Positions 29,104 through 62,404 are shown, counted from the stretch's first letter. The stretch: DNA of 64,000 nucleotides from Candidatus Omnitrophota bacterium (GCA_013203315.1 JABMQJ010000018.1:11292-75291), one strand, 5' to 3'. Made by a program: numbers and translations. Notes: generated by a model from the letters alone, not told the origin.

Positions 29104-31020
29104 ATGAATTTTAGTAAAACAAAGATATTGGTTCTGATAGTAGTTTGCGCTGCTAATTTACTATTATTACTCCCTACCATGGGGAATAATGTCGACAATC
29201 CCAACCTAATTACTTATTTTAGCGGCGATGAAGGCTATACGATGGATGTTTTGTGGTTTTATTATAGCGGAGAAAAGAGGGAGAGTTACCAGGGGGACGT
29301 TGATTATGGAATTGAGTGGTTTTATGTTTCACGCTTTGCGCGTTTGATATTATCAAAATTCATAGATTTTGGACCAGGTACCCTTATCTTATTATTAAAA
29401 TGGATTCATTTGATTGCTTGGATCGGCGCTTTAATCGCACTGTGGTTTTTTGTGGGTTATCATTTTGGGAAAGGATGGCAACAGATAGTGGCCGTTCTTT
29501 TGCTGGCAACCAGGCCTTCATTGGATTATGTTTTTAATAGTGCTAAACCAGAACCGCTTGTTTTGCTAATCATGCTGCTTGGGTTCCATTTTGTTTTAAG
29601 AATTATAGAAAAACCATCGATTAAATACTTTTTATTTTCTATATTATGTGTCGTAACCGCATTCGCTATAAAGTTTGCAGGTATTTTTCTGCTTCCTGCA
29701 ATAATTGCTGCCATGTATTATTCAAAACAATATCAGAACGATCTTGGCAGAAAAAATTATATTGGGCCTTTCCCGAAATTTAAACACAACTGGATATTTG
29801 AGTTTCTAATAGGCATATTTTTTATTACAATTCCGTTTTTATTTATCTTTTCTTATGTTCGTAAATCGACAGGTCTTACTTTCTACAATGAATTTGGTAT
29901 TTTAGGAAGCCTTGCAAAGAACAAAATATCTTTTTTAGCCTTTTTTACGGGCGCAGTTTTTTTGTTTATCTCGGCCATATTATTTTTCCTAAATAAAAGT
30001 AGAAAATTTTCCAATAAAAAAATTACAGAAACGATTAACGAAATAAATTCATATGCCTTACTGTCAGGAGGACTATTTTTCATTTTTTTGTTATTAATCG
30101 AGTTTAAATGGATTTTATCTAGTCCGGATCTATTTCGCACAACATATTTCTATAATATTTCTGACTTTATAGGCGTATTTGCCACCAGAACCGTTACTGT
30201 CAGTAACATTCTAGGAAGATATTCAGGAATTGTTATTTCGAAAATAAAGGGGTTCGATCCTATAATACTTCTTTTATTTGGCATTTATCTAATTGTGGAG
30301 TTACGTTTACGTAAGCAGAAATCAAACATTGAGAGACGATCATTCTATAAAAGATTATCCTTAGACTTCATGCTTATACCGATTTTTATAGCCATCTTTA
30401 CCATGGGTAGATTTACGCATCATCATATGCTGCCATTTTTTTGCGTAGCATCTATTTTAGCAATTAAAGGGGTTGATATGTTTAGAACTGCGTTTAAAGG
30501 TCCGAGATTGATAAAAATGGCATTTTTATTCTTTGTCAGTATCTTATTTACGATTAGTATAGTGACGCATGGGGCAGAGTTAATAAAGCTAAGGTTGTAT
30601 CAGTACAGACAGAGGGAGGATGTTGTTTTCGAGATAGAAAAGTGGTGGAGACAAAATGTTCCCCTAGATGAAACCGTTGTAGCAGATCATCATTCAATGG
30701 TTTACATGCCTCCAGAGTATAAAAACGTGACATTTATTAAAATTTCCCATGATAAAATCGAACAAATAAAAGATCTTGTGCGTACGGTAAAGCCAAAATA
30801 TGTTTATTATAACAGTGGGCATGATGAAAAGCACATAGTGCCGCCCATTGAATCAGTTTTGCCCGATTTAAAAGTAAAATTGGTCGCATCTTTTAATAGC
30901 GTAGGTAGATTGTATAGAAGGCTTCCGAACTCGCAATTTCTAATATATGAAGTAATCTCCTACGACAAAACAAGTAAAATAGACGATGTGGAACTCTATT
31001 TAAAAACAGGGGATATATGA
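29104..31020 (+). CDS. Polytopic membrane protein, putative GT-C (PMT_2/ArnT-like) glycosyltransferase
   Basis: More than 10 predicted TM helices. Loop motif 'GDEGY' near the N-terminus. Soluble C-terminal domain. Positioned after the polyprenol-P sugar synthase at 25226. Confidence 0.35.
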   Translation: MNFSKTKILVLIVVCAANLLLLLPTMGNNVDNPNLITYFSGDEGYTMDVLWFYYSGEKRESYQGDVDYGIEWFYVSRFARLILSKFIDFGPGTLILLLKWIHLIAWIGALIALWFFVGYHFGKGWQQIVAVLLLATRPSLDYVFNSAKPEPLVLLIMLLGFHFVLRIIEKPSIKYFLFSILCVVTAFAIKFAGIFLLPAIIAAMYYSKQYQNDLGRKNYIGPFPKFKHNWIFEFLIGIFFITIPFLFIFSYVRKSTGLTFYNEFGILGSLAKNKISFLAFFTGAVFLFISAILFFLNKSRKFSNKKITETINEINSYALLSGGLFFIFLLLIEFKWILSSPDLFRTTYFYNISDFIGVFATRTVTVSNILGRYSGIVISKIKGFDPIILLLFGIYLIVELRLRKQKSNIERRSFYKRLSLDFMLIPIFIAIFTMGRFTHHHMLPFFCVASILAIKGVDMFRTAFKGPRLIKMAFLFFVSILFTISIVTHGAELIKLRLYQYRQREDVVFEIEKWWRQNVPLDETVVADHHSMVYMPPEYKNVTFIKISHDKIEQIKDLVRTVKPKYVYYNSGHDEKHIVPPIESVLPDLKVKLVASFNSVGRLYRRLPNSQFLIYEVISYDKTSKIDDVELYLKTGDI

Positions 31021-31760
31021 GTCCGAAAAGGGATACCGAGAAAGATGATGTAGTGATACTTTGCGGAGGCATGGGCACGCGCCTGCGTGAAGAAACGGAA
31101 ACAAAGCCTAAGCCAATGGTGGAAATAGGCGGAAAGCCGATATTATGGCACATTATGAAGTATTATGCAGCTTATGGATTTACGAGATTCATTTTGGCTC
31201 TCGGATATAAAGGCGCTTATATCAAGGATTATTTTCGTGATTACAACAATGAAAAACAATGGGAAATCGCATGCGTCGATACCGGCCAAAAAACCCTTAA
31301 AGGCGGCCGCATAAAAAGATTGGAACCCCATATAAAAAGCAAAAATTTCCACCTTACATACGGTGATGGCCTGGGTAGGGTGGACCTTAAGCGCCTGGCG
31401 AACTTCCACTTTTCGCGTAAAAAAATAGGCACAGTTACCGCCGTTCGCCCGCCATCGCGCTTTGGGGAATTGCTGTTAAAAGGCAATTATGTTAAGGAAT
31501 TCGAAGAAAAACCGCAACTCACCAGAGGATATATAAACGGCGGATTTTTCATATTTAATAAGAAACTTCTTGAATATCTGACGCCCGATGAAAATTGCGA
31601 TCTGGAATTCGGCGCGTTACAGAAACTAGCATCCGAGGGCCAACTTACCGCATATAAGCATGACGGTTACTGGCAGTGCATGGATACGGCCAGGGACATG
31701 AATTACCTTAATGAGTTATGGGAAAACGGCGACCCGCCATGGAGGATATGGAACAAATGA
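31017..31760 (+). CDS. rfbF: Glucose-1-phosphate cytidylyltransferase
   Basis: 'VVILCGGMGTRLREETETKPKPMVEIGGKPILWHIMKYY' closely matches the RfbF/DdhA N-terminus. Length is about 247 aa. ATGA overlap with the upstream gene. Confidence 0.8.
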   Translation: MSPKRDTEKDDVVILCGGMGTRLREETETKPKPMVEIGGKPILWHIMKYYAAYGFTRFILALGYKGAYIKDYFRDYNNEKQWEIACVDTGQKTLKGGRIKRLEPHIKSKNFHLTYGDGLGRVDLKRLANFHFSRKKIGTVTAVRPPSRFGELLLKGNYVKEFEEKPQLTRGYINGGFFIFNKKLLEYLTPDENCDLEFGALQKLASEGQLTAYKHDGYWQCMDTARDMNYLNELWENGDPPWRIWNK

Positions 31761-33255: not shown

Positions 33256-33256
33256 T

Positions 33257-34162: not shown

Positions 34163-34164
34163 AA

Positions 34165-36181: not shown

Positions 36182-36226
36182 TTACACTAGTGCGGAGTTT
36201 CACAAAAAAGTAGAATAGGTTTAATT

Positions 36227-37558
36227 ATGAAAAAAATATTATTAATTATGCAATCCCCCGTAAACAAAGAGAATTACATTAACGTCTTGCCTCCTCTGGG
36301 AATATTATACATTTGCTCTTTTCTTAAATCCAAAGATATACCCTCAGATATCATTGACTACAATGTGTCGAATATCGATTATTCTGTGGTTCAGGATTAT
36401 GACTTGATAGGTTTTAGCATAAACTGTGCAAATATTACCAATACCCTAAACATGGCAAAGGCTATCAAAAAGCAATATGGCAAGGAAATAATCGTAGGTG
36501 GTCCTCAGGTAACGGGTGATCCGACATTTTTCTTAGACAAGGACTATATCGATGGTGCAGTTGTTGGTGAAGGAGAACACGCCTTATATGAATATTTAAT
36601 AAAAGGAAAAGTAGTACCAGGTTTGTATTTAAAAGAAAAAAATAAAAAAATAGTTTTTGGAGAACCACGTCCAGGTAATAAAAACTTAGATTCCTTACCG
36701 TTTCCGGCTTTCGATAAGATTGATATAAGAAAATATAATACGGTTCCCAAAAAAAGAAATCCAGTCTCGACAATAGTTACATCCAGAGGTTGTCCGTTTA
36801 AGTGTATATTTTGTTTTCATTCGTTGGGATATTCATTCAGGTCACGTAGTGCCGAGAATATTGTTGATGAGATAGAGTGGCAGGTCAAAAATTTTGGTGT
36901 AAAAGAAATTTGTTTTCTAGATGATAATCTAAGCCTGGATATCAATAGAGCGAAAAAAATATTCAAAGGTATCATAGATAAGAATCTCGATGTAGTGTTT
37001 CAGATACACAACGGTATCAGGGTAGATAAGGTAGATGACGAGTTGTTAAGCTTGATGAAACAAGCAAGATTATGGTTTATGATTATATGCCCCGAAAGCG
37101 GCGACTCGAAAACCATAGAATTGATAAAAAAAGGATTTGATAAAGAAATTGTTAGAAAAGTTGTTAAAACCAGTAAGAAAATGGGATTTTTTACATATGC
37201 CTGTTTTATGATTGGATTCCCATGGGAAACCGAAGAACGCATAAAGAGAACCGTTGATTTCGCCAAAGAATTAGACACAGATATGGTACAATTCTCGAGG
37301 GTAACCGCATTCCCTGGAACTGAATTATACGATATGTGTAATTTAAATTATAAAATAGAAAAAGATAGCGGCTTATTCTACGGTGATCCCAGATTCAATA
37401 TAAGCAAGTTAACTGATTCCAGAATAAATCAAATAATTAAAGAAGCATATAGAAAGTGTTATTTAAAACCAAGAAAGATACTAAAATTATTAACATCTTT
37501 GAAATGGCGAAACGTATACTTATTAGCAAAATATTCTGTAACAACCAAGAGCATCTAA
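36227..37558 (+). CDS. Cobalamin (B12)-binding radical SAM protein
   Basis: 'TSRGCPFKCIFCFH' radical SAM triad after a B12-binding-like N-terminal domain ('IIVGGPQVT'). Confidence 0.7.
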   Translation: MKKILLIMQSPVNKENYINVLPPLGILYICSFLKSKDIPSDIIDYNVSNIDYSVVQDYDLIGFSINCANITNTLNMAKAIKKQYGKEIIVGGPQVTGDPTFFLDKDYIDGAVVGEGEHALYEYLIKGKVVPGLYLKEKNKKIVFGEPRPGNKNLDSLPFPAFDKIDIRKYNTVPKKRNPVSTIVTSRGCPFKCIFCFHSLGYSFRSRSAENIVDEIEWQVKNFGVKEICFLDDNLSLDINRAKKIFKGIIDKNLDVVFQIHNGIRVDKVDDELLSLMKQARLWFMIICPESGDSKTIELIKKGFDKEIVRKVVKTSKKMGFFTYACFMIGFPWETEERIKRTVDFAKELDTDMVQFSRVTAFPGTELYDMCNLNYKIEKDSGLFYGDPRFNISKLTDSRINQIIKEAYRKCYLKPRKILKLLTSLKWRNVYLLAKYSVTTKSI

Positions 37559-38798: not shown

Positions 38799-40646
38799 AT
38801 GCTGCATGGGAAGAACATAATCTGCATATCTTCAATTGACTGGGACTTTATCTGGCAGGGCCACCAGGAGATAATGTCGGTCCTTGCCAAAAACGGAAAT
38901 CGAGTTCTTTTCATAGAGAACACGGGTGTTCGCATACCGACAATAAAGGATACCGATAGGCTCTGGAAGCGATTTAGTAACTGGAAAAAGGGCTATAAGG
39001 GTATCCGTAAACTACGCGACAATCTATACGTATATTCACCGCTTGTAGCGCCTTTCCCGTATCTGAAACCCGCCATAAAACTTAATAAATTCTTAATGCT
39101 GTCTGTCATCAAAAGATGGATGAAGGTGATGGAGTTTCACGATCCTGTTGTGTGGACTTTTTTGCCTACGCCGCTGGTGCTGGATATGGTGGATGAACTG
39201 GACCCAAGCATTTTCATTTATTATTGCATAGACGATTTTAGCTCAAGCTCTGAGGGCGCAAGGGGCATTAAAAAAATAGAAAGAAAAGTCTTTAAAAGGG
39301 CAGATTTAGTCTTCGTGACATCACACAAGCTATATGAATACGCTGCCTCAGAGAACAAGGAAACGCACCTGTTTCCTTTTGGCGTTAGTGTGGATAATTA
39401 TAACAAGGCCCGGGAAAGTGATACAGCTATACCAGCGGAAATGCGCGACATAAAAAAACCGATTATCGGTTACGTGGGCGGTATACATAAATGGGTTGAC
39501 ATGGAACTGGTGAAAAAAATAGCAATTGCTAGAAAAGATCTATCAGTTGTTCTCATAGGGCCGAAACAGACTGATCTTTACGGCATTGATAAATTGGATA
39601 ACGTATTTATGCTGGGAAAGAAAGAACCTAAGGATCTGCCCAAGTTTGTAAAGTTTTTTGACGCGGGCATAATTCCATACCGAAAAACAAGCTATACGGA
39701 AAACGTCTATCCTACGAAAATAAATGAATACCTGGCCATGGGAAAACCCGTTATATCTACAGAAATACCCGAAGTTCTGCGATTCGATAAAGAAAACGGA
39801 GGAGATTTTATTTATTTCCTAAAAGACAAAAAAGACATAAATCCAGTTATAGACAGGGCGCTAGGGGAAAATAGTTCTCTCCGGAATCCTAAACGAATAA
39901 AAGTTGCAAACCAGAATTCCTGGTTAGTCAAAATAGAGGGAATGTGTGGTCTAATAGAGAATAAGCTTAAAAACATAGAGCTGCAAATAGGCCGGGACTG
40001 GCTGGGAAGATTCAAGGGCTTTTATGCAAGGGCCCGCAAGAAGGCGATACTGGTTGTGGGTGCAGTGGCCATCATGTATTTTGTGATATTTTACAGTCCG
40101 CTCGTATGGCTCCTGGCCGCTCCGCTTGAAATTTTTGATAGTCCGCAAAAAGCCGATGCCATAGTAGTTTTAGGAGGCGGGGTAGGCGAGACAGGTTCGC
40201 CCGGCAAGAGCACTATAGAGAGGGCGATGTTTAGCGCAGAGTTATATAAAAAAGGCCTTGCGGAATACATGATATATTCGTCCGGTTATACATGGAAATA
40301 CAACGATGCGGAGAGCATGATGCAGCTTGCTGTTTCGATGGGGGTGCCGAAAAAAAATATTATTTTAGAGAAAAAAGGAGATTTCACCTATACCAATATC
40401 GAATATACGACCGAAATTTTACGAAAGAAAAATCTTCATAAGATACTACTCGTTAGTTCATCATACAACATGAGAAGGGCATCGCTGGTTTATGAACATA
40501 TCGCAAAAGATATAAATGTAACATATGTTCCGGTTCCGAATCCACAGTTTTACCAAAGAGAAAAGAAGGTCAGGCTGGAACAAATAAAGGCAATTGTGCA
40601 CGAATATCTGGGAATAATCTATTACTACCTTAAAGGCTACATTTAA
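38799..40646 (+). CDS. Fusion protein: GT4-type glycosyltransferase (TuaH-like N-terminus) + C-terminal DUF218/YdcF (ElyC/SanA-like) domain
   Basis: N-terminal 'IICISSIDWDFIWQGHQEIM' and GT1/GT4 'PYRKTSYTENVYPTKINEYLAMGKPVIST'. Then a TM segment and 'DAIVVLGGGVGETG...LVSSSYNMRRASLVYE', which matches the DUF218 pattern. Confidence 0.55.
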   Translation: MLHGKNIICISSIDWDFIWQGHQEIMSVLAKNGNRVLFIENTGVRIPTIKDTDRLWKRFSNWKKGYKGIRKLRDNLYVYSPLVAPFPYLKPAIKLNKFLMLSVIKRWMKVMEFHDPVVWTFLPTPLVLDMVDELDPSIFIYYCIDDFSSSSEGARGIKKIERKVFKRADLVFVTSHKLYEYAASENKETHLFPFGVSVDNYNKARESDTAIPAEMRDIKKPIIGYVGGIHKWVDMELVKKIAIARKDLSVVLIGPKQTDLYGIDKLDNVFMLGKKEPKDLPKFVKFFDAGIIPYRKTSYTENVYPTKINEYLAMGKPVISTEIPEVLRFDKENGGDFIYFLKDKKDINPVIDRALGENSSLRNPKRIKVANQNSWLVKIEGMCGLIENKLKNIELQIGRDWLGRFKGFYARARKKAILVVGAVAIMYFVIFYSPLVWLLAAPLEIFDSPQKADAIVVLGGGVGETGSPGKSTIERAMFSAELYKKGLAEYMIYSSGYTWKYNDAESMMQLAVSMGVPKKNIILEKKGDFTYTNIEYTTEILRKKNLHKILLVSSSYNMRRASLVYEHIAKDINVTYVPVPNPQFYQREKKVRLEQIKAIVHEYLGIIYYYLKGYI

Positions 40647-40669
40647 CAAGCAAAGGAGGAAGGGCAGGA

Positions 40670-41170: not shown

Positions 41171-41493
41171 AGAGCAAACCCAGTAGGGATTTGACTAAAA
41201 CTATTATATTATATTTCCGTAGCAGCAAAACGTACGAACTTTTTGTGGCATTCAATCAATTTTTTAGAGAAATATTGAAAGCAAAAAACACAAGTTGCAC
41301 TATCAATTTTCTAAAAAAACTGGGAAAACAAATAACATTAAAAGACGTTGGGGTATTCGTTATTCTAACGGTTTTATTTAATACGGCGGCAAGATTTGCG
41401 TTAAACGGGACGTTCGACATATTTTCAATCTCGTCCAGAATTTTCTTCCTTTTCCTGGGTTTAGTTTTATTTTTTAGTAGAAAGCAAAAATGA
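41167..41493 (+). CDS. Possible small membrane protein (low confidence)
   Basis: ATGA overlap with the upstream gene and TGA/ATG coupling to the downstream GT4. Hydrophobic C-terminal half. Could be a non-coding spacer. Confidence 0.2.
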   Translation: MKSKPSRDLTKTIILYFRSSKTYELFVAFNQFFREILKAKNTSCTINFLKKLGKQITLKDVGVFVILTVLFNTAARFALNGTFDIFSISSRIFFLFLGLVLFFSRKQK

Positions 41494-52869: not shown

Positions 52870-54987
52870 ATGATTAAATCCTTAAAAAAAGAAGCGCTAG
52901 TCGTTATGCTGGGTAGTTTTGCCGTAACGGTTAAAGCGCTTCTTTTTTTTAAAAGTTTTCTACATTTCGAGCTTGGTGATGATTACGGCATAGTAAGCTG
53001 GGTAACGATAAATAACTATCCCATGCAGTCTCACGTCTATTACTATGCGCTCTCATTTATAGCGGCGGCTTTGGGAGCGCTCATCTTTTACCTCTTTTGG
53101 AATTTTACGGGCATTATAATGGCTAAGATTTCAAAACTTTCCGCACGCGACGCATTAAAAATAGATGCTGCTACTTATGTGTTCGGTATCATAGGACTCC
53201 TTATCTTTTTTATAGACAAGGACCTTTTTCTTAAAACACTCACTTCTTTCATTACCCTTATTTTTGTGTCTAAACTTTTTGCTGTTCCATGTTATAGATT
53301 CTTTGTGAGAAATAAGGTGATAGACAATACCCGAGATGCGTTTTATGCGATTATAAAGAGACTAAAGAGAAGGCGGAAAATTATAAAAAGACAAAAGGCG
53401 TCAGTTTTCCTACAGAAACTTTTTATCTATGCCATAATACCGGTTATAATTTATTTCCTTTTTTACAAGCCTGGCTTAAACAGGCCCCTTGACTTTGTGC
53501 ACGAAGGGGATCTTTTGGCGCCGTATCAGGCGATAGAAGCCGGAGGGGTTCCGTATAGAGATTTTCACATTCCGCATGGTATTATACACGATGTCTGGCT
53601 GCCTTACGTAGGGCTTAAGCTCTTTGGCGCTACTCTCGAAGGTTTTAGAAGGTTTTACGATTTTGCAGAATGCGGGCTTATAGCGCCTTTCGGGTATATT
53701 GCTTTTTATTTTCTTTGCCTTTCATTATTCCGAAGAAAGCTTACTATTTTTCTCACGTTTTTATTTTTTACCAGCGCAACCGGTATCGCGACCCTGGCAG
53801 GCCGCCAGCTTTTCCCGATCATGGCCCTTACATTTCTGGTTTCCTTTATCGATAAAAATAAGTCCTGGAAACTCTTTGCCTCAGGAATCTCGGTAGCGAT
53901 AGCCATCATGTTTTCCATAGACTTAGGGATGCTCTCACTTGCCGCAATAACGCTTTTTCTTATTTTTTATTTCTTTGCGATGTATTTCAAGCCAAAGAGC
54001 TATAGCATAAAGTATTTTTTCACCTTCGCGGGAGGCGTTGCAGCAGGGATTTTGCCTCTCATGCTTTATCTTGCCAAGACGGGCGGCCTCAGGCAGTACT
54101 TCGATATTATAGTCAGTAATTCGATGAAGCTTTACTTCGTGATTTGTGGGTCTCCTTTCGGGGCTTACCATGAAGAAAAATATTTTCCTATCATCGTATA
54201 CCTTATAGTCACGGTGTGGCTGGTGCGGGACATTGTCTTTAGGAATTTTACAAAAACAAATCTTAAAGCTACGGCTTTGCTTATAGCGGGGGTATTCTAT
54301 TTCTATACGGCACTCCTAAAACCCGACGGTCCACACATCATATTTGCGACCTTCCCGGTGTATCTACTTGTGTTTATACCGGTTGAATCATTTTTTCTCT
54401 ACATGGGCCGAATTACGACTTGCGACAAAAAGAAACTGTGGCGCCGCGATTTTGGCAATATAGTTATCGCTTTTCTTTGTATTGTAGCGATTTTGGGGTG
54501 GGCAATAGGAAGATTCTCACCCAAACACGTAATAGAGAAGTTCGCCGAGAGAATCCAGGCGCGCAACGTCATCCCGGAAGGATACGTGCGGATTGGCATC
54601 GAACGGGCGGGCAATATCTACGTGCCGAAACCGCAAGCAGAAAAGGTACGCGCTATTGTGGAGTTTATACAAGATAACACAGAAGACGGTGACTATATAT
54701 ATGACTTTAGCAGCCAACCGCTCTATTATTTTTTGACAAACAGGAATAATCCAACCCGATACGCTTTTTTGCATTACTCCAGTACGCCGGGTCAGCAAGC
54801 GGAAGTTATCAAAGACCTTAAAGAGAATAGGCCTCAATATGTTCTTTTCGAAAATTCCGAATACGGTGGTATAGAATTTAAAAAAAGGTGTTATATAATC
54901 TGGCCGTACATAGACACAAATTATGAACCTGTTTTTGAAAAAGACGGCTTTTATATCCTAAAGATTAAGGAGGGAGTGAACTTATGA
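52870..54987 (+). CDS. Large polytopic membrane protein, putative GT-C (PMT_2/ArnT-like) glycosyltransferase paralog
   Basis: More than 12 predicted TM helices. 'HEGDLLAPYQAIEAGGVPYRDFHIPHG' is collinear with the 'DEG...PYKDFF...PPG' motif of the downstream paralogs. C-terminal soluble domain 'YIYDFSSQPLYYFLTNR' is paralogous to the C-termini of 59199 and 60791. Confidence 0.35.
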   Translation: MIKSLKKEALVVMLGSFAVTVKALLFFKSFLHFELGDDYGIVSWVTINNYPMQSHVYYYALSFIAAALGALIFYLFWNFTGIIMAKISKLSARDALKIDAATYVFGIIGLLIFFIDKDLFLKTLTSFITLIFVSKLFAVPCYRFFVRNKVIDNTRDAFYAIIKRLKRRRKIIKRQKASVFLQKLFIYAIIPVIIYFLFYKPGLNRPLDFVHEGDLLAPYQAIEAGGVPYRDFHIPHGIIHDVWLPYVGLKLFGATLEGFRRFYDFAECGLIAPFGYIAFYFLCLSLFRRKLTIFLTFLFFTSATGIATLAGRQLFPIMALTFLVSFIDKNKSWKLFASGISVAIAIMFSIDLGMLSLAAITLFLIFYFFAMYFKPKSYSIKYFFTFAGGVAAGILPLMLYLAKTGGLRQYFDIIVSNSMKLYFVICGSPFGAYHEEKYFPIIVYLIVTVWLVRDIVFRNFTKTNLKATALLIAGVFYFYTALLKPDGPHIIFATFPVYLLVFIPVESFFLYMGRITTCDKKKLWRRDFGNIVIAFLCIVAILGWAIGRFSPKHVIEKFAERIQARNVIPEGYVRIGIERAGNIYVPKPQAEKVRAIVEFIQDNTEDGDYIYDFSSQPLYYFLTNRNNPTRYAFLHYSSTPGQQAEVIKDLKENRPQYVLFENSEYGGIEFKKRCYIIWPYIDTNYEPVFEKDGFYILKIKEGVNL

Positions 54988-55679
54988 ATGCAGAGTGCTT
55001 ATCAATCGTCATGCCTGTTTATAACGAAAAAAATACGGTTTTGGAGATTGTAAATAAGGTATTAAAGCTCGAGAGTTTAAAAGAGCTCATAATTGTCGAT
55101 GACGGCTCTACGGATGGCACGAAAGAACTTATACAAAAAACCGAGTTCGACCCAAAAGTGCAAAAAGTCTTTCATGAAAAAAATACGGGCAAAGGAGCCT
55201 GTTTACGAACAGGGTTTGAAAGGGCCGAAGGAGAGATCGTAGGCATACAGGACTCGGACTTAGAATACGACCCTAATGAATTCTCCGAACTTATAGCCCC
55301 GATTCAAAAAGGCGTTGCCGATGTGGTGTATGGCTCCAGGCTCTGGGGCGGAAAACCCCAACGCGCGCATATGTTCTGGCACTTGGTAGGGAATAGGTTT
55401 TTAACCCTGGTTGCCGATGTGCTTTACAATACCACGCTCACTGACATCGAAACCTGTTATAAGGTTTTTAGACGGGACGTATTAAAGGAAATCCGCATCG
55501 AGTCCAACGGCTTCTCGGTTGAACCGGAACTCACGGCTAAAATCCTAAAAAAGAAACTTAAGGTCTATGAAATGCCTATTTCCTATTATGGCAGAACCTA
55601 TGAAGAAGGGAAGAAGATAAGCTGGAAGCACGGTTTTAGCGCGTTATGGACGCTTATAAAATATAGATTTGTCGATTAA
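54984..55679 (+). CDS. Polyprenol-phosphate sugar synthase-like GT2 (DPM1/GtrB-type, soluble form)
   Basis: 'LSIVMPVYNEKNTVLEIV...IIVDDGSTDGT...GIQDSDLEYDPNEF' is typical of dolichyl/undecaprenyl-phosphate glycosyltransferases. GGAGGGAG RBS and ATGA overlap. Confidence 0.65.
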   Translation: MNAECLSIVMPVYNEKNTVLEIVNKVLKLESLKELIIVDDGSTDGTKELIQKTEFDPKVQKVFHEKNTGKGACLRTGFERAEGEIVGIQDSDLEYDPNEFSELIAPIQKGVADVVYGSRLWGGKPQRAHMFWHLVGNRFLTLVADVLYNTTLTDIETCYKVFRRDVLKEIRIESNGFSVEPELTAKILKKKLKVYEMPISYYGRTYEEGKKISWKHGFSALWTLIKYRFVD

Positions 55680-55680
55680 T

Positions 55681-56073
55681 ATGAAGAAACTCACTCTTAT
55701 AGCCATTATAGCCTGGATAGCGATCTGGGCAAATTTTGTTGCAAGAGACTTGTTTGTAAAAGGATATTTTAAGGAGTACAAAACCCTTGCCTTACAAGAT
55801 AGCCGCGGCAAGGCGTCTTTTACGTATGGTAAACGGTTATTTGATTTCTTAAATTTTTGCAAAGAAAGCTTACCTCAATCCGCAGATTACGATTTTGTAG
55901 GTATAAAGGAACCTTCGATAGCGGGCCGCCGCGCTATTTATTATTTGTACCCGCACGTTAAAAAACGTAATGCCAGATTCTTACTAGTTTTTGAAAAATC
56001 GGGGTTAGAAAAAAAAGGCTATAAATTATTTAAAAAACTGGATGACTCCAGGTTCATACTTAAACGGATGTAA
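55681..56073 (+). CDS. Hypothetical small protein with N-terminal signal/TM helix
   Basis: Starts at the ATG at 55681 rather than the upstream TTG. 'MKKLTLIAIIAWIAIWANFVA' hydrophobic N-terminus. No other recognisable motifs. Confidence 0.3.
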   Translation: MKKLTLIAIIAWIAIWANFVARDLFVKGYFKEYKTLALQDSRGKASFTYGKRLFDFLNFCKESLPQSADYDFVGIKEPSIAGRRAIYYLYPHVKKRNARFLLVFEKSGLEKKGYKLFKKLDDSRFILKRM

Positions 56074-57467
56074 TGATAATGGGATTTTTAAGTACAATTC
56101 TTTTCATAGTCGTAACGACTTTTGCGGGATTTAACGTAATAATTCTTTTTGACAGGCAGGGTGTGCTTACCATGCTTGAGAAAATAGGGCTTTCCTATTT
56201 ATTCGGCATCGGGGCCATATCCCTGGAGCTTTTTTTCCTGTGGATTTTCGGAATCAAGCTTAACATGCTATTCATTCTCTTGCCCTGGCTATTTCTGATA
56301 GTATTAAACGTGTTAACCCGTTCGATTGGAAACGTTTTTTCACCGGCCAAACGCAGTGTCGATACGGAGAACACCCCAATTAGCATCTTCGAAAAATGGA
56401 TACTTTCGCTATTATCCTTCGAAGTCCTTTATACATTTTTTAGAAGCCTAATGCGCCCCGTAGAGGCTTACGACAGCGTTGCGATATGGTCGCTGAAGGG
56501 AAAGATTCTCTATCTTACGAAAACTCTACCCGGTGAATTTTTTAATATGCTAAGTGCGACTTTCCACGGCGTACATCCCGATTACCCGCTTCTTGTGCCT
56601 TTTTCAGAAGCTTGGTTCTATACGCTTTTTAATAATTTTAATGATTACCTGGTGAAAATTATTTTTCCGCTGAATTTTACGGCATTTTTACTTGTTTTTT
56701 ATTCGGTTTTAAGAAGGGTAACGCATAAAAGAAACCTCGCACTATTTTTTACATTTGCATTAGCTTCCGTGAAACAATTTAACGATTATGCCACGATCGG
56801 GGTCGCTGACCTGCAAACGGCAATTTACGCGTTCCTGGCATTCGGATTTTTGTTTATATGGGCAAGAGAAAAAAACACCGTGTATCTTTTTATAAGCGGC
56901 CTCTCTTGCGTATTTGCCTTTTTTACAAAGAACGAGGGAAGTGTTGTTCTTTTGACAATGGTGGGCATGCTTCTTGCCTTCGCTGTCAGGCCGTTTTTCG
57001 GAAAGAAGCTTTCGCTGAATAGCAGAGCTATAATTTTTGCAATTTTTACCCTATCCGCCTTATTGCTTGGCTGGTCATTGTTTAAGGCCGGCATGCACCT
57101 TGAGAACGATGTTATTAATGCGGAAACTTTTCGGAATATTAGGCTTGTTACTATGTCAAAAAGATTGATACCGATAGCTTACGAATACCAAAAACATATA
57201 TTCGGTTTTAAAAAGTGGAATTTAATATGGATAGCTTTTCTATGCGCGATTTTTGTAAAATCACCGAAATTATCGTTTGGAAGACATAAGCTTATACTTT
57301 TCCCTACACTGGCTATTTTGGCAGGGTACACGGTCATTTATTTAATAACACCGCAGAGCATAAGCTGGCACTTAGCAGCATCGGCAAGCCGTCTTCTCAT
57401 TCACATTCTTCCGCTTGCCGTATTTTTTGTAGCACTTAGAATAAACGACTTATATTATGAAAAATAG
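56073..57467 (+). CDS. Polytopic membrane protein (possible glycan-processing GT-C/O-antigen-related protein)
   Basis: About 11 predicted TM segments. TAATG overlap start. Sits inside the GT-C paralog array but lacks the clear DEG...PPG motif. Confidence 0.3.
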   Translation: MIMGFLSTILFIVVTTFAGFNVIILFDRQGVLTMLEKIGLSYLFGIGAISLELFFLWIFGIKLNMLFILLPWLFLIVLNVLTRSIGNVFSPAKRSVDTENTPISIFEKWILSLLSFEVLYTFFRSLMRPVEAYDSVAIWSLKGKILYLTKTLPGEFFNMLSATFHGVHPDYPLLVPFSEAWFYTLFNNFNDYLVKIIFPLNFTAFLLVFYSVLRRVTHKRNLALFFTFALASVKQFNDYATIGVADLQTAIYAFLAFGFLFIWAREKNTVYLFISGLSCVFAFFTKNEGSVVLLTMVGMLLAFAVRPFFGKKLSLNSRAIIFAIFTLSALLLGWSLFKAGMHLENDVINAETFRNIRLVTMSKRLIPIAYEYQKHIFGFKKWNLIWIAFLCAIFVKSPKLSFGRHKLILFPTLAILAGYTVIYLITPQSISWHLAASASRLLIHILPLAVFFVALRINDLYYEK

Positions 57468-59199
57468 CGCCAAAAAACATAAAGGATTCATGATTGCAGC
57501 CCTTGTAATATTTGCTTTTCTTTATTTTTTGTTTTTTGCAAGGTTCGATTTAATGGCCGGAGATGAGGGGTATTTTAACATCGTAAGCTACAGGATGATA
57601 GAAGGCGAGGTTCCATATAGAGATTTTTTTCTGCACACACCACCGGTCTCTTATCTTCTAGAGACGGGTGTTTTTAGCGTATTTGGGCAGGACTTTATTG
57701 TGGGCAGGGTTACGACCGCGATTACGGGCGTTTTAATAACCATTCTTTTATTTTTAGTAGCATCGCGTGTTTCTGATGTGCCGTTCTCTCTTGTGCCCGG
57801 CTTAGTTTTCATATTTTGGGGCACCTCCCACATACCGTATCCGTCGTTTAACTGGCATGGCCTTCTGGTGGCCCTTGGGGTCATGCTCGCTCTATTTAAA
57901 TTTACGGATTCCGGAAAACGTAAATTTCTCGTAGCGGTGGGGATTCTCGTAGGGCTTCTTTGTCTTATCAAACAGAATCTTGGCGCAGCTGCTATTATTT
58001 CCGTAGCGATTTATCTATGGCTTTATAGGCCAAAAAAGATTGACGTTTTTATCGATTATGCGTTTACAGGCATAGGAGGCGTTCTCGCAGGTTTTCCGAT
58101 AATACTATATTTTTACAAAAACGGCGCGTTACAAAGCATGCTTTTTTACCTCTTTAATTTTTCTTCGGATACCCTGAAATTAAGAATGGAACTCTTTCCG
58201 TTTCCGCACCTTAAGCCCATGACTTTTTTTCTGTTAGGCTTATATCTTTTACTGGGCTACGCGCTCGTAAGAGCGAGCTTCCGAAAAAAATACGTCTTAT
58301 TTTTTGCGACGATTTCTACAATTGTTTTAGGGACTGCATTTTTTTATGGATTTGCCACCAAGAACGCTGTTCTCTACGCGAATGATCACATAAAAGAGGG
58401 CATTATAAACGGATTTTTTAATCTCCCTGCTTTTTGCATTATAATGATTTTATTTTTGCTGTTATCAAAAGCTATAAAAAAAGTTGCAACCAGCCAAAGG
58501 GACCTATATTTACGCTTTGCGGTCATATTTTCCATTTTCTATATCTGGTTCGGCCTTATTAAGTCACGCGATCTTTTGCACCTGATACCGACGATGCCGA
58601 TAGCGTACCTCTTTTTTGGATATTTACTGGCTTTTGCGTACAACGCATATAAGGCGAAATTGGGGCAGAGCATGATGCTAAAAACATATTATTTTATTGT
58701 GCCAGTTATTTTCTTTTGCCTTTTCGGGTTATATACAAATATGAATAACGAAACATTCAAGTTTTCTTCCACGCCGCTTACAGAAATGAATTATTCTCCG
58801 GCTATTGAAAGAGCGAAACACCTCATAGTTGAAAAGAAAAAAGGAAAAGACATGGAGGAGCTTGTAAAATACATAGATTCCCACACGCGCCCCAATGAGA
58901 AGATATTCCTTTTTCACATAGACTCCTCCTTTTATATACTGGCTGACAGGTCCCCTGCCACTTTTCATACGTTTTTTATACCGGATGCCTTTCGGTCAGA
59001 AGACCAGGAGAGGGTAATAAGGGAATTAGACGGGAACAAGGTAAGACTCGTCGTTTGCAAGAAAAGAATATACGATAGGTGGGAGGCCGTGGGTGATGCA
59101 AAGAAAGACTGGCCCACAGCCCGCATCGAGAAATTTCTACGTACAAATTTCTATGTAAAAAAGATCATGGGCCTAAATTATATTTTGATGAGAAAATAA
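57457..59199 (+). CDS. Putative GT-C (PMT_2/ArnT-like) membrane glycosyltransferase, paralog 1 of 3 tandem copies
   Basis: 'MAGDEGYFNIVSYRMIEGEVPYRDFFLHTPPVSYL...FGQDFIVGRVTT' matches the PMT_2/ArnT first-loop DE...PP...FG.S..R pattern. Multi-TM core plus C-terminal soluble domain. Confidence 0.4.
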   Translation: MKNSAKKHKGFMIAALVIFAFLYFLFFARFDLMAGDEGYFNIVSYRMIEGEVPYRDFFLHTPPVSYLLETGVFSVFGQDFIVGRVTTAITGVLITILLFLVASRVSDVPFSLVPGLVFIFWGTSHIPYPSFNWHGLLVALGVMLALFKFTDSGKRKFLVAVGILVGLLCLIKQNLGAAAIISVAIYLWLYRPKKIDVFIDYAFTGIGGVLAGFPIILYFYKNGALQSMLFYLFNFSSDTLKLRMELFPFPHLKPMTFFLLGLYLLLGYALVRASFRKKYVLFFATISTIVLGTAFFYGFATKNAVLYANDHIKEGIINGFFNLPAFCIIMILFLLLSKAIKKVATSQRDLYLRFAVIFSIFYIWFGLIKSRDLLHLIPTMPIAYLFFGYLLAFAYNAYKAKLGQSMMLKTYYFIVPVIFFCLFGLYTNMNNETFKFSSTPLTEMNYSPAIERAKHLIVEKKKGKDMEELVKYIDSHTRPNEKIFLFHIDSSFYILADRSPATFHTFFIPDAFRSEDQERVIRELDGNKVRLVVCKKRIYDRWEAVGDAKKDWPTARIEKFLRTNFYVKKIMGLNYILMRK

Positions 59200-60776
59200 T
59201 GTCCAAAGACAATAAAATAGTTATTTTACTTGTAATCGTAAGCCTTTTTACATTTTTACTGGCTCTCAACAAGTACTGGGCGCCGTATGACGAGGGGATC
59301 GTTACGGTAGGTGCAGAAAGAATCCTGCACGGTGAGATTCCCTATAAAGATTTTTTTATCATCATGTACCCGCCGGGCCAGTTTTACCTAATTGCGTTTT
59401 TGTATAAAATTTTCGGAACTTCATTAGAAACGGGAAGAATATATACCTGCTTTATTCATGTCTTAATAGCCATGTGTGTCTTCCTTATAGGGAGAGCGCT
59501 TACCAAAAAAACAGTTGTACCGCTTATACTGTGGATAATAAGTCTCTCATGCCTGGCGCCCCGCATGGGCCTTGCGCCGTTTCCAATTTGGCCGGGTATG
59601 GCTTTCTCACTTCTTTCCGTATTTTTGTTTATGAAGTATCTTGAAAAAGGAAAACTTAATTTTGTAGTATTTTCAGGCCTTGCGGTAGGGTTAGCTGCGC
59701 TTTTCAGGCACGATATGGCATGTTATGCATTTCTTGCAATACTGGCAGGTTTTATTCTTTATAGAAGAAGGATTAAAGAAGCATCGGTTTTTATATTATC
59801 CTCATTCGTTGTGCCGTTGCCGGTTTTTCTGTATCTCTCCTTGAAGTCAGCCTTTCGGGACATGTTCGAGTCTTTACTTGTTTTTACTTTTTCCCATCAC
59901 GAAGCTGCCGCGCTTTCTTTCCCGAAACCATGCTTTAACCTAAACATGATATTCCACCAGAGCCTCTACTTTATCAAGGTAAACCAGTACTACATCCCCT
60001 TAATAATATTTGCTTTTGTAGCCATTTTCCTTATAAAAGAGTTCCTGGTAAAAAGGAAATTCGGCAAAAAAGAAATCACACTTTTTGTGTTGCTTGTTTT
60101 CGGGGCATTATGCTTTAACCAGGTAAGGGTAAGGACCGATCCGGCGCACCTTTTAACTTCAATCTACCCGGCTATTTTACTTTTCGGATTTATCCTGGAT
60201 AACGCCCTTTTCAACCGCCGAATGACGCGCGCCGAAAGAGTTGCATTCCGGTCCTTCGCGATTCTTATAGGAGCGCTTTTTCTATTGCTTTTTGTAAAAA
60301 ATGTAGATAAATCTTTCAAAAACGTCTTCAGGAAACCGTATAGGGGAGACGTCTTGTTAACCAGGTTCGACAGGGGCGCTGTTTATATACCGAAGGCTCA
60401 AAGGGACGACATTGTAAATACCGTTTCGTTTATCAAGGCTAACACGAGTGTCGATGAATCAATTTATGTAGGCAACATTGTTCACTGGAGGGATGAGTAC
60501 GGTGGAAATATGCTTCTTTATTTTCTATCGGAACGGCTTCCACTAACCAAGTATTACGAGTTGGCCCCGGGCCTTACCACGCAACCGCATGTACATGCGG
60601 AAATCATCGAATCACTCTCGAATGAAAAGATAAATATTATCGTACTGCAGGACATAGCGCTTCCCGAGGAAGGGCCGGTTGACAGTGATTTATTGTCTCT
60701 AGACGAGCATATAAAGCGCAATTTTAAACAGGTTAAAAAATTCGGTAAATATAATATTTATAAAAGGAAAAGATAA
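59199..60776 (+). CDS. Putative GT-C (PMT_2/ArnT-like) membrane glycosyltransferase, paralog 2
   Basis: 'WAPYDEGIVTVGAERILHGEIPYKDFFIIMYPPGQFYL...FGTSLETGRIYT' is collinear with 60791. TAATG overlap start. Confidence 0.4.
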   Translation: MSKDNKIVILLVIVSLFTFLLALNKYWAPYDEGIVTVGAERILHGEIPYKDFFIIMYPPGQFYLIAFLYKIFGTSLETGRIYTCFIHVLIAMCVFLIGRALTKKTVVPLILWIISLSCLAPRMGLAPFPIWPGMAFSLLSVFLFMKYLEKGKLNFVVFSGLAVGLAALFRHDMACYAFLAILAGFILYRRRIKEASVFILSSFVVPLPVFLYLSLKSAFRDMFESLLVFTFSHHEAAALSFPKPCFNLNMIFHQSLYFIKVNQYYIPLIIFAFVAIFLIKEFLVKRKFGKKEITLFVLLVFGALCFNQVRVRTDPAHLLTSIYPAILLFGFILDNALFNRRMTRAERVAFRSFAILIGALFLLLFVKNVDKSFKNVFRKPYRGDVLLTRFDRGAVYIPKAQRDDIVNTVSFIKANTSVDESIYVGNIVHWRDEYGGNMLLYFLSERLPLTKYYELAPGLTTQPHVHAEIIESLSNEKINIIVLQDIALPEEGPVDSDLLSLDEHIKRNFKQVKKFGKYNIYKRKR

Positions 60777-60790
60777 GTTACTTCAAAAGT

Positions 60791-62404
60791 ATGGACACAA
60801 AAAGATTTTTAAATAGATATGGTATGTTTCTGGCAGTTATAGTGAGTTTTCTTGCATTCCTGCCCGCATGCAACAAATTCTGGGCGCCCTATGACGAGGG
60901 GTTTATATTAGAGGCATCGCGCATGGCCGCAAAGGGGATGGTTCCTTATAAAGATTTTTTTATACTCATGTATCCGCCGGGTCAAATTTATACACTGGCA
61001 GGGCTTTTTAGTATTTTCGGCACAAGTTTAGCGGCAGGAAGGATATACACGATTTTTCTGCAGTCTATCATTACGGCCTGTGTTTTTTATGCCGTAAAAA
61101 AGTTCTCCGGACTTTTGTGGGGAATAGTCGCATTTATAATATGCGTGAGCACTCTTGCGTCACTTGGCCGAGCCATTCCCCGGCCTACATGGCCCGGGAT
61201 TGCGCTTAGCCTGCTCGCGGTATTATTTCTTTTATCGTTCATAGATAAGGAGAAATATAGGCACCTCATGTGCGCGAGTTTTTTTACAGGGCTCTCGGTT
61301 ATTTTCAGGCACGATATCGGAATTCTTACATTTAGCGCATGCTTAGCCGGCCTTTCGCTTTATACGGTATATAAATTCCAGGAAGGACATATTGCGAAAA
61401 CAAAAGTTGCCCCAAAGGCATTACAGCTTTACGGAATCTATTCGATTTTTCCGTTTCTATTTATTGTAACAGCGATTTTTATGCTATATAAGGCAGGCGC
61501 TTATCCCGATGTGGTCAAATCTCTTATAATATTCCCCCGGGAATTCTTGAAAGGCGCATATATTCCTTTTCCCGCGTTCTCCTTTGATGTGAAGAGCATA
61601 TTTTACGGGGGGTGCCTCTTTATAGAGAAGAACCGCTTCTATATACCGATAATAACCTATGCCGCTACGGCTATATTAATTTTTGCGGAATTTGTACCGG
61701 AAAAGAAATTAACAAAAAGGTGCGTTTCCCTGGTAACCCTTTTATTTTTAGGTATATTTTATATGCAGCAGGTCATGGTAAGGGCAGATGATGGGCACCT
61801 CGCCTCTGCCAGCGCCCCTTTTATAATTTTATTCGGAATTATACCCTCATTTAAAGTAAGCCGGGGAAAGAATCCATTGAAGGCATTTAAAGTTTTAGTC
61901 ATGATCTTTTTGTCATTTCTGATGGCGCTTTTTGTTTTCAAGAACACAGAAGAGCTTTACAAGCATTTTTATAAAAGGGCGTATGTCAAAAAAACGATAA
62001 ATCCGGTAACATTCGGAAAAAGCACTGTCTACATCCCAGATGACACGAGAGATGAATTTTTGTCCTTAATGAGATACGTTGAGCAGAATACGGATTCCAA
62101 CGATACGATTTATATAGGGAGCCTGAACCATTCGGTTCCGCAATACGGCCGGTATGAACTGATTTATTTTTTGACCGGTCGAACACCGGGGGTTAAATAT
62201 TATGAAATTCATCCCGGATTGCAGGACAAGAAAAATATACAGGAAGAGATGATCTTGTCGCTTGAGAAGAGCAAGCCCAGGGTGCTACTCCTCAGGGACT
62301 TTAAAACTAACGCAGCGCGTCCGGGCCCCCTTGACAAATATATACGAAAAGTGTATAAACGTAATAAAATTATAGGATCATATCACATTTATGAAAAAGA
62401 ATAG
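60791..62404 (+). CDS. Putative GT-C (PMT_2/ArnT-like) membrane glycosyltransferase, paralog 3
   Basis: 'WAPYDEGFILEASRMAAKGMVPYKDFFILMYPPGQIYT...FGTSLAAGRIYT'. C-terminal 'YELIYFLTGRTPGVKYYEIHPGL' parallels 59199 'NMLLYFLSERLPLTKYYELAPGL'. Confidence 0.4.
   Translation: MDTKRFLNRYGMFLAVIVSFLAFLPACNKFWAPYDEGFILEASRMAAKGMVPYKDFFILMYPPGQIYTLAGLFSIFGTSLAAGRIYTIFLQSIITACVFYAVKKFSGLLWGIVAFIICVSTLASLGRAIPRPTWPGIALSLLAVLFLLSFIDKEKYRHLMCASFFTGLSVIFRHDIGILTFSACLAGLSLYTVYKFQEGHIAKTKVAPKALQLYGIYSIFPFLFIVTAIFMLYKAGAYPDVVKSLIIFPREFLKGAYIPFPAFSFDVKSIFYGGCLFIEKNRFYIPIITYAATAILIFAEFVPEKKLTKRCVSLVTLLFLGIFYMQQVMVRADDGHLASASAPFIILFGIIPSFKVSRGKNPLKAFKVLVMIFLSFLMALFVFKNTEELYKHFYKRAYVKKTINPVTFGKSTVYIPDDTRDEFLSLMRYVEQNTDSNDTIYIGSLNHSVPQYGRYELIYFLTGRTPGVKYYEIHPGLQDKKNIQEEMILSLEKSKPRVLLLRDFKTNAARPGPLDKYIRKVYKRNKIIGSYHIYEKE

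Follow-up and report, generated by a model that had tools for sequence, protein, structure and literature searches.

We examined a 64-kb window (the whole stretch of DNA that was analysed) from Candidatus Omnitrophota that encodes six polytopic membrane proteins assigned to the GT-C glycosyltransferases and two putative synthases of polyprenyl-phosphate sugars. Proteins are named here by the start of their open reading frame (ORF), and coordinates are positions in the whole window (Table 1). Omnitrophota are a widespread uncultured phylum that includes ultra-small, possibly host-dependent cells. We know of no experimental work on their cell envelope, and a literature search on Omnitrophota and glycosyltransferases returned just general statements that glycosyltransferases for lipopolysaccharide (LPS) or capsule lie in variable regions. 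All genes of the window are on the + strand, with a G+C content of ~0.40, and Pfam and NCBIfam scans covering nearly all of its + strand ORFs of at least 100 amino acids (aa) revealed one very large glycan-biosynthesis cluster. The eight glycosyltransferase ORFs singled out by an earlier inspection of the DNA (hereafter the sequence-only reading) are all present on the + strand at exactly the coordinates it gave. We consider it reasonably probable that the window belongs to a gene cluster of more than 64 kb for making a surface glycan, and that this cluster contains two extracytoplasmic glycosylation modules, each of the synthase plus GT-C type, acting on an envelope glycan.

Sequence comparison divides the six membrane glycosyltransferases into three subfamilies, E-type (52870, 57457, 59199 and 60791), A-type (29104) and C-type (56073). 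The sequence-only reading had placed at least five of them in one family with a shared first-loop motif. The motif itself is real and is carried by the four E-type proteins: 59199 has DEG31, PYKDFF48, PPG58 and FGTSLETGR72; 60791 has DEG35, PYKDFF52, PPG62 and FGTSLAAGR76; and 57457 has DEG36, PYRDFF53, PPV62 and FGQDFIVGR76. The version in 52870 is altered, with HEG211 (His for Asp), PYRDFH228, no PPG and FGATLEGFR252. Outside the E-type, 29104 has DEG42 alone of the motif, and none of the literal strings occurs in 56073. Of the 90 ORFs in the window that are 90 aa or longer, only the four E-type ones contain PY[KR]DF. BLASTP aligned 59199 with 60791 over the full length at 34% identity (E 4.5e-97), with 52870 over 518 aa (E 1.6e-19) and with 57457 at E 5.5e-18; these values identify the four as true paralogs whose similarity is not due to chance. 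The same searches found no similarity of 29104 or 56073 to the E-type proteins or to one another, and the idea of one family with one motif gives way to three separate subfamilies.

Conserved positions follow the same division. Across 38 E-type homologs, G33, D51, P59 and R80 do not vary, and conservation is at least 90% at D31, E32, P48, Y49, F52 and F72. A-type proteins conserve D42, E43 and G44 in at least 90% and have invariant K190 and G193, and the C-type has invariant D134, Y171, P172, L173, K286, E288, G289 and R440. All three subfamilies have conserved acidic residues in the first loop, directly after a transmembrane (TM) helix (E-type D31/E32/D51, C-type D134, A-type D42/E43); 52870, with its HEG, is the exception. 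Beyond the motif, we built a hidden Markov model (HMM) of the last 143 E-type residues from orthologs alone, leaving out the other window paralogs. It matched 60791 (7.5e-36), 52870 (3e-9) and 57457 (1.4e-7) and did not find 29104. The tandem array at 57457-62404 thus has paralogous C-terminal domains, as had been proposed, and the relationship extends to 52870.

Profile searches connected the subfamilies to known families with varying strength. The Pfam model PMT_2 (PF13231; gathering score 26.1 bits) matched 59199 (39.6 bits), 60791 (30.6) and 29104 (30.2) above its gathering score, whereas 56073 (24.9) and 57457 (21.9) fell just under it. Its 14.1-bit alignment to 52870 covers residues 438-502, the wrong region and away from the motif, which leaves that protein with no valid match. 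Taking the whole families, PMT_2 matches 31 of 38 members for the E-type and 18 of 37 for the C-type, and PF13231 is present in most homologs of the A-type. The PMT_2 score is what places the A-type among probable GT-C enzymes; its profile comparisons (hhalign) with the E-type and the C-type were weak (Prob 21% and 38%), and its profile found no GT-C match in the PDB. Support for 56073 was broader. Its PMT_2 alignment spans profile positions 2-154 of 160, and hhalign joined the C-type and E-type profiles at Prob 88% (E 2.8e-6, 207 columns), pairing 'YDSVAIW' with 'YDEGIV', 'LPGEFF' with 'IPYKDFF' and 'TKNEG' with 'FRHDIG'. Because this alignment is in register, we conclude that 56073 has a remote counterpart of the motif with its elements in the same order, and we accept it as the sixth member that had been suggested.

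The NCBI label "glycosyltransferase family 39 protein" is attached to the three proteins checked, one each of the A-, C- and E-type, and entries identical to 59199 and 29104 carry it. This name mirrors the PMT_2 model and does not demonstrate kinship with GT39. Specific assignment to CAZy GT39 or GT83 is not supported, since in the PDB searches none of their characterised members was significantly similar and Pfam reported no MIR domain for any of these proteins.

To place the E-type structurally, we turned to an AlphaFold2 (AF2) model of 59199, which was of high quality by its predicted local distance difference test score (pLDDT 92.6; pTM 0.92; 38 homologs). In a Foldseek search of the PDB, the top 45 matches to this model were all GT-C enzymes (E 3.9e-9 to 0.043; query-normalised TM-score at most 0.62). 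They comprised STT3 (3.9e-9), ArnT 5f15 (4e-8), DPY19 (TM-score up to 0.62) and AftA (3e-6), together with AglB, PglB, ALG9, Pmt4, Pmt1/2 (6p25), EmbA-EmbB (7bvf), EmbC, AftD, AftB and PimE. Unrelated transporters came after this GT-C block, at probabilities below 0.2. By fold, 59199 thus belongs with the GT-C enzymes of structural class GT-C_A, which takes in STT3/PglB, ArnT, PMT, DPY19 and Emb/Aft. By sequence, the sole PDB match to the E-type profile was ArnT 5ezm, at a non-significant E of 0.073, with 'YPPGQ' aligned on 'EKPP' and 'FRHDIG' on 'LTKGLVG', and the single sequence of 59199 returned spurious ferritin matches and no GT-C enzyme. Homology to 59199 would put 60791, 57457 and 52870 in the same fold. 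The ArnT/PMT-like signature described by the sequence-only reading is thereby borne out as a GT-C signature, but the likeness is to GT-C enzymes in general, since STT3 and DPY19 score as well as ArnT. That reading had also considered Wzy-like polymerases and unrelated transporters as alternative identities, and neither is among the GT-C top matches. A Wzy-like identity was checked separately within the window, where the Wzy_C protein at 44515-45912 shows no significant BLASTP similarity to any of the six.

The membrane topology, computed by applying the positive-inside rule to the helices of the predicted models, places the motif outside the cytoplasm. In the 59199 model, the cytoplasmic loops (KKT, GK, RRRIK, KRKFGKK and NRRMTRAER) hold 2-5 K/R each, whereas the short periplasmic loops hold one K or R each. 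The N-terminus is therefore predicted to lie inside, and the DEG...PYKDFF...YPPGQ segment, modelled as two short helices between TM1 and TM2, would form the first periplasmic loop, in agreement with the extracytoplasmic position proposed earlier. The other invariant polar residues (R80, R122, R170-H171-D172 and R312-D314-H317) and the C-terminal alpha/beta domain are likewise predicted to be periplasmic.

Not every E-type copy need be an active enzyme. A gene caller starts 57457 at 57490, giving 569 aa, and the protein keeps all acidic residues of the motif. The divergent copy 52870 has ~200 extra N-terminal residues with ~4 TM helices before the motif and matches the E-type TM-domain HMM at 2.9e-12; to judge from its sequence, it may be inactive or mechanistically different. 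Pmt1-Pmt2 and EmbA-EmbB function as heterodimers, and 52870, possibly together with 57457, could similarly serve as a structural or regulatory partner in hetero-oligomers with active E-type enzymes. H211 in 52870 replaces an Asp that is at least 90% conserved in the family, the PPG element is missing, these two copies are the most divergent and have the lowest PMT_2 scores, and heterodimeric complexes (6p25, 7bvf) are among the structural matches. Against this, 52870 retains E212, D231 and the FG...R element, and the acidic motif residues of 57457 are intact; on balance we regard non-catalytic roles as unlikely.

The C-type differs from the E-type in architecture and is accompanied by a small protein. 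An AF2 model of 56073 (pLDDT 90.5) returned GT-C enzymes as all of its top 12 Foldseek matches (E 0.025-0.76; TM-score 0.31-0.46), and its N-terminus and D134 are predicted to face outwards. The small protein 55681 has no Pfam or NCBIfam match, yet it belongs to a recognisable family with an invariant RRxxYYLYP-like motif. In a library of 1.84 billion proteins this family forms 134 representative clusters, nearly all of stand-alone proteins. In around ten homologs the domain instead comes after a signal peptide, an unrelated periplasmic domain and TM helices in one polypeptide; these fusions support the periplasmic location that we consider probable for the soluble domain. One homolog (metagenomic P0251) is fused behind a DPM1-like GT2, a weak lead, from 1 of the 134 clusters, that the small protein could act as membrane anchor of the TM-less synthase 54984. 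We also considered whether it is a split-off E-type C-terminal domain and rejected this at the level of sequence, as hhalign gave Prob 0.5% with 5 and with 15 sequences.

The two candidate synthases are homologs of enzymes that charge polyprenyl phosphates. Across its full length (residues 5-313), 25226 matches Synechocystis GtrB in the PDB (5ekp, 9.1e-72), followed by ArnC (5.7e-37) and dolichyl-phosphate mannose synthase (DPMS; 1.3e-16), and it ends in two hydrophobic helices, as do GtrB and ArnC. For 54984, the matches were Pyrococcus furiosus DPMS (5mlz, 1.5e-16), ArnC (1.7e-13) and GtrB (7e-10). The best NCBIfam models were PgfS (281 bits, cut-off 500) and ArnC (150, cut-off 529) for 25226 and AglJ (122, cut-off 325), PpgS (68) and Dol-P hexose transferase (66) for 54984, all scoring below their cut-offs. 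The closest characterised relatives of both GT2 proteins are thus polyprenyl-phosphate glycosyltransferases, which agrees with the GtrB/DPM1-like assignment made in the sequence-only reading.

Several of these results recall protein O-glycosylation, in which some or all of the GT-C enzymes would modify Ser/Thr residues of secreted or envelope proteins from polyprenyl-phosphate sugars. PMTs carry out such O-glycosylation in fungi and actinobacteria, streptococci have the PgfS/PgfM system, and the 'DE' acidic pair that opens the first luminal loop of PMTs corresponds to the DEG seen here. PMT_2 is the family of the protein mannosyltransferases, the NCBI name GT39 is that of the PMT family, and the window proteins share its Pfam clan. 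The best NCBIfam matches point the same way, since PgfS is the synthase of a protein glycosylation system and AglJ acts in S-layer protein glycosylation, and 54984 is TM-less and DPM1-like, as in a PMT plus DPM1 pair. Among the fold matches, Pmt4, Pmt1/2, DPY19 and STT3 act on proteins. Set against this are the missing MIR domain, a hallmark of true PMTs, and the PDB sequence searches, in which ArnT alone and no solved PMT was matched. PMT_2 is moreover a broad family that also holds ArnT-like lipid and glycan modifiers, and the genes lie in a cluster of the polysaccharide/LPS type that also encodes an initiating transferase, a Wzy_C protein and a heptosyltransferase. We consider protein O-glycosylation very unlikely.

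Synteny assigned each synthase its own GT-C set. In the window, module 2 consists of 54984, the small protein, C-type 56073, the E-type genes, a GmhB-like phosphatase and a short-chain dehydrogenase/reductase (SDR). We scanned 12 independent other Omnitrophota loci with local HMMs, including the closed 1.43-Mb genome CP070780.1. All loci extending far enough have the order small protein (117-145 aa), C-type (449-499), E-type (519-617), phosphatase and 345-aa SDR, except L014, where the E-type gene is ~4 kb downstream of the SDR. The small-protein gene directly precedes the C-type gene in 11 of the 12 (the twelfth, L006, ends upstream), and a DPM1-like GT2 ortholog (~340-390 bits) lies 1.3-1.5 kb upstream of the module in 10. 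The phosphatase directly follows the E-type gene in 9 loci and is also present in L014, while L008 and L010 end at the E-type gene; the SDR (500-630 bits) is found in the 9 loci that reach far enough.

Against this conserved background, the E-type genes of the window are a local expansion. Eleven of the 12 loci have one E-type copy, and the closest relative, L006, has two. Orthologs of 59199 occur in the 12 loci at 43-59% identity, marking it as the ortholog of the single copy elsewhere. A counterpart of 60791 was found in L006 only, and 52870 has none in any of the 12. The window genome instead has three tandem E-type genes plus the divergent 52870 before the GT2. Directly after the SDR, 0.01-1.8 kb past the window end, a second pair of small-protein and C-type genes follows (L001 11682-13483; small protein at 11682-12062; C-type at 315 bits against the C-type HMM), which brings the cluster to seven GT-C genes, six of them inside the window. 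The number that the sequence-only reading called unusual is indeed so relative to the 12 other loci, but GT-C paralogs in tandem are in themselves already known elsewhere. Further downstream of the module lie a UgtP/MGDG-synthase-like GT28 gene and a gene with a domain of the uracil-DNA-glycosylase superfamily (L001 15396-17178, L003 13816-15616, L005 13235-15023). In the closed genome, priA and fmt come after the GT28 region, a housekeeping neighbourhood.

An operon of this kind could serve to assemble a polymer in the periplasm, with GT-C enzymes that would not decorate a completed glycan but build a lipoglycan one sugar after another from polyprenyl-phosphate monosaccharides on a glycolipid primer. 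The mycobacterial Emb, Aft and Mpt enzymes are the model, and embCAB is a tandem array. Like Emb/Aft, the locus combines several GT-C subfamilies in one conserved operon; like Emb, Aft and PimE, it has tandem GT-C paralogs with C-terminal domains, which in the mycobacterial enzymes bind carbohydrate. AftA, AftB, AftD, EmbA/B/C and PimE are among the fold matches, and 54984 matches the model of mycobacterial PpgS (which works with Rv3779). The downstream GT28 enzyme (L001, L003, L005) could make a diacylglycerol glycolipid primer, and the housekeeping neighbours priA and fmt suggest a core envelope function. The link to GT28 is, however, one of adjacency, and the one C-type and one E-type enzyme present in most Omnitrophota are few for polymer building. 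Emb and AftD are also much larger and depend on a decaprenyl-phosphate arabinose (DPA) donor made by a UbiA-type enzyme rather than a GT2, and no sequence-level relationship to Emb/Aft was detected. We judge such polymer assembly to be quite unlikely.

A bolder version, to which we also give low probability, is that module 2 and the GT28 gene constitute a phylum-wide Omnitrophota pathway that builds a hitherto undescribed envelope lipoglycan, in the periplasm and on a glycolipid primer, from polyprenyl-phosphate sugars. The small protein would be an obligatory partner linking the 54984-type synthase or the C-type enzyme to the acceptor, and the extra E-type enzymes would diversify the polymer. 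If true, the resulting surface variation could be relevant to the way of life, host-associated or predatory, that has been proposed for these ultra-small bacteria.

In the window, module 1 comprises 25226, a methyltransferase, an amidotransferase and 29104, and the order of a GtrB-like GT2, a methyltransferase, further genes and an A-type gene was found again in two loci (L018 and L020), with a GT2 of 312-318 aa in the same place upstream of the A-type gene. L018 additionally has a 654-aa GATase in the matching place and, unlike the window, a Wzx-like Polysacc_synt gene before the A-type gene.

We propose that both modules follow the familiar route of lipid-linked sugar transfer. On the cytoplasmic face, 25226 (module 1) and 54984 (module 2) would charge polyprenyl (undecaprenyl) phosphate with a sugar taken from a nucleotide sugar, the product would be flipped across the membrane, and, on the periplasmic face, the polytopic GT-C enzymes would pass its sugar to an acceptor. 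The adjacent synthase homologs and their conserved synteny lend indirect support to such lipid-phosphate-sugar donors. The first-loop acidic residues (E-type D31/E32/D51, C-type D134, A-type D42/E43) may perform the chemistry, and conserved basic residues at the periplasmic membrane surface (E-type R80, R170 and R312; C-type K286 and R440) may hold the lipid phosphate. The C-terminal periplasmic alpha/beta domain of the A- and E-type would probably help in acceptor binding, and each paralog could add a different sugar or linkage, or address a different acceptor site. Most likely, the sugars are added to an envelope glycan that the rest of the cluster produces, either an LPS-like core/O-chain or another lipid-anchored polysaccharide; we favour this acceptor because of the genomic context.

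This arrangement has clear precedents. A synthase, a flippase and a GT-C enzyme with a C-terminal carbohydrate-binding domain, along with auxiliary epimerases, make up an established periplasmic glycan-modification route (PMC11127046; PMC8035078). Examples of these three-component systems are GtrA/GtrB/GtrC in Shigella and Salmonella, GacI/GacL in Gram-positives and the GT136 pentofuranose system of Citrobacter (PMC11127046; reviewed in PMC8035078). As in those systems, a GT2 synthase adjoins the GT-C gene, 25226 is a full-length GtrB homolog, and GT-C enzymes with a C-terminal extracytoplasmic domain occur with an auxiliary epimerase-like SDR in a polysaccharide locus. Unlike them, module 2 combines two GT-C subfamilies with a small one-TM protein, the E-type is present four times, and the second synthase is of the TM-less DPM1 type.

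Some of our results weigh against two modules acting on an envelope glycan. No GtrA, SMR or MATE flippase gene was found by the Pfam scans among window ORFs of at least 100 aa, a further departure from the Gtr-type systems, and 54984 has no TM helix. As neither GT2 reached an equivalog cut-off, the transferred sugars cannot be named. The best fold matches of 59199 are STT3 oligosaccharyltransferases, which use diphosphate-linked oligosaccharide donors and protein acceptors, and the fold alone consequently fixes neither donor nor acceptor. For the C-type, structural support is statistically weak (Foldseek E of 0.025 or worse) and its profiles find no sequence match in the PDB. Finally, 52870 has a His for the first-loop Asp.

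The cluster context and the relationship to ArnT raise a more specific acceptor, namely lipid A or the inner core. Enzymes of the ArnT, FlmK or RgtA-RgtB type would place charged or neutral sugars on lipid A phosphates or on Kdo/core and so adjust how charged and how permeable the outer membrane is. ArnT is the sole solved protein detectable by sequence, and its fold aligns with that of 59199 at TM-scores of 0.52 (query-normalised) and 0.51 (target-normalised). Both ArnT (GT83; 5ezm, 5f15) and the E-type have an acidic first periplasmic loop followed by a '(K)PP' element, 'YPPGQ' in the E-type, and a C-terminal periplasmic alpha/beta domain, and ArnC is close to 25226. The cluster also encodes an LPS heptosyltransferase II equivalog, a GmhB-like phosphatase and an MsbA-like exporter. 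In Rhizobium, RgtC/RgtD and the synthase RgtE stand alongside RgtA and RgtB. There is precedent in RgtA and RgtB, which each put galacturonic acid on Kdo, both acting on the outer Kdo, and in ArnT orthologs that put galactosamine or 4-amino-4-deoxy-L-arabinose (L-Ara4N) on lipid A (PMC4402001). By this description, several ArnT-like paralogs working on one glycoconjugate from one lipid-phosphate-sugar donor resemble what is seen here.

The resemblance has limits. Whereas the ArnT structure has 13 TM helices, 11 are predicted for 59199; the sequence similarity is below significance, and the PMT_2 'TK..G' element has become 'FRHD.G' in the E-type. ArnT is no better a likeness than STT3 or DPY19, the window scans found no ArnA/B/D pathway for Ara4N and no ArnE/F flippase, and six or seven enzymes exceed any known decoration set. 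Decoration of lipid A or the inner core is in our estimation rather improbable, and we retain the envelope glycan produced by the cluster as the preferred acceptor.

Functionally, the locus is a familiar synthase plus GT-C scheme for extracytoplasmic glycosylation, unusually large but otherwise ordinary. Multiple GT-C paralogs acting on one glycoconjugate are already known, for example RgtA and RgtB (PMC4402001), and the finding leaves knowledge of GT-C enzymes themselves unchanged. The new elements are descriptive, namely three GT-C subfamilies that centre on Omnitrophota and have defined signatures, a conserved module with an uncharacterised small periplasmic protein, and a local four-fold E-type expansion. 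Loose "GT39 family" labels can now be replaced by two conserved modules for which donors, topology and catalytic residues are predicted. These can serve as targets when proteins are expressed heterologously or glycans are analysed, and as markers to compare surface-glycan diversity between Omnitrophota lineages. As a whole, the observation in the sequence-only reading held in part and its interpretation is supported, none of the contrary outcomes it had named having been seen.

Table 1 Genes of the two modules and other annotated features of the window (aa, amino acids; SAM, S-adenosylmethionine; HAD, haloacid dehalogenase).
Coordinates	Strand	Feature	Support or detail
59199-60776	+	E-type GT-C, 525 aa	11 predicted TM helices; C-terminal periplasmic alpha/beta domain (residues 383-525)
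60791-62404	+	E-type GT-C paralog, 537 aa	third of tandem three
57457-59199	+	E-type GT-C paralog, 580 aa	first of tandem three
52870-54987	+	divergent E-type GT-C paralog, 705 aa	
56073-57467	+	C-type GT-C, 464 aa	helical throughout, lacking a soluble domain; three additional TM helices at the N-terminus
29104-31020	+	A-type GT-C, 638 aa	~11 TM helices; C-terminal soluble domain of ~150 aa
25226-26206	+	GtrB/ArnC/PgfS-type polyprenyl-phosphate GT2, module 1	Glycos_transf_2 5.8e-31
54984-55679	+	DPM1/AglJ/PpgS-like synthase, 231 aa, module 2	Glycos_transf_2 1.8e-35
55681-56073	+	small protein, 130 aa	one N-terminal TM helix; basic soluble domain of ~105 aa
62391-62966	+	GmhB-like HAD-IIIA phosphatase	PDB GmhB 4pnh 1e-24; NCBIfam heptose 1,7-bisphosphate phosphatase model, 173.2 bits (cut-off 178)
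62963-64000	+	SDR, nearest CDP-tyvelose 2-epimerase	PDB 9rl0 1.3e-75 and 1orr 1.1e-62, full length; Pfam Epimerase
25969-27048	+	SAM-dependent methyltransferase	Pfam Methyltransf_23 6.5e-27
27113-29092	+	glutamine amidotransferase + WbuX-like N-acetyl-sugar amidotransferase fusion	Pfam GATase_6; NCBIfam WbuX 145 bits
43649 (start)	+	WecA-like initiating transferase	Pfam/NCBIfam
44515-45912	+	Wzy_C-family membrane protein	Pfam/NCBIfam
45815 (start)	+	LPS heptosyltransferase II	NCBIfam 139.4 bits (equivalog cut-off 134.6)
20379-22175	+	MsbA/HepA/PglK-like ABC exporter	NCBIfam scan
12218-13888	+	B12-binding radical SAM enzyme	
16020-17492	+	B12-binding radical SAM enzyme	
23693-25213	+	B12-binding radical SAM enzyme	
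36227-37558	+	B12-binding radical SAM enzyme	
1078-2100	+	radical SAM + SPASM enzyme	
19375-20367	+	radical SAM + SPASM enzyme	
2084-3241	+	ORF preceding the HisH/HisF-like pair	no family match
3214-3870	+	HisH-like	
3881-4711	+	HisF-like	
38799-41493	+	GT1 + DUF218 fusion (615 aa), then DUF4330 protein, then 116-aa ORF	

The window also encodes many GT2 and GT4 enzymes, RmlA-D-like and further nucleotide-sugar enzymes, and amidotransferases, as identified by Pfam and NCBIfam. Scattered among them are six radical-SAM enzymes, four of which are B12-binding. The set suggests that sugars here undergo unusual C-methylation or other radical reactions, and similar genes also flank GT-C genes in the Omnitrophota loci L003, L004, L018 and L020. 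The HisH/HisF-like pair, together with the GATase and WbuX-like fusion of module 1, recalls WbuX/Y/Z-type amidotransferases, which make acetamidino sugars.

A further stretch, 38799-41493, looks like another conserved sub-module: its order of GT1+DUF218, DUF4330 and small ORF was found again in L020, and the GT1+DUF218 gene also in L019. We considered its 116-aa ORF (41143-41493) as a candidate flippase and set it aside on finding no family match and weak hydrophobic segments. Four window genes are atypical for O-antigen loci (4760-5764, 9938-11005, 11128-12231 and 14631-16016); they encode a sulfotransferase, a homolog of Ldh_2-family malate/L-lactate dehydrogenases (349 bits), a GDSL lipase/acylhydrolase and a fusion of GT2 with a CMP-sugar-type cytidylyltransferase. 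Three large ORFs, at 6689-8731 (680 aa), 17459-19378 (639 aa) and 22172-23686 (504 aa), have no Pfam match; 17459 showed a weak match (23 bits) to a BFO_1060-family glycosyltransferase domain and nothing else.

Some listed ORF starts overlap the upstream gene by ~80-240 nt (25969-27048 with 25226-26206, 45815-46996 with 44515-45912, and 46918-49200 with 45815-46996), and the true starts are probably further downstream. For the methyltransferase of module 1, the start is probably near 26200, since the Methyltransf_23 domain begins at residue 150 and homologs are ~284 aa long.

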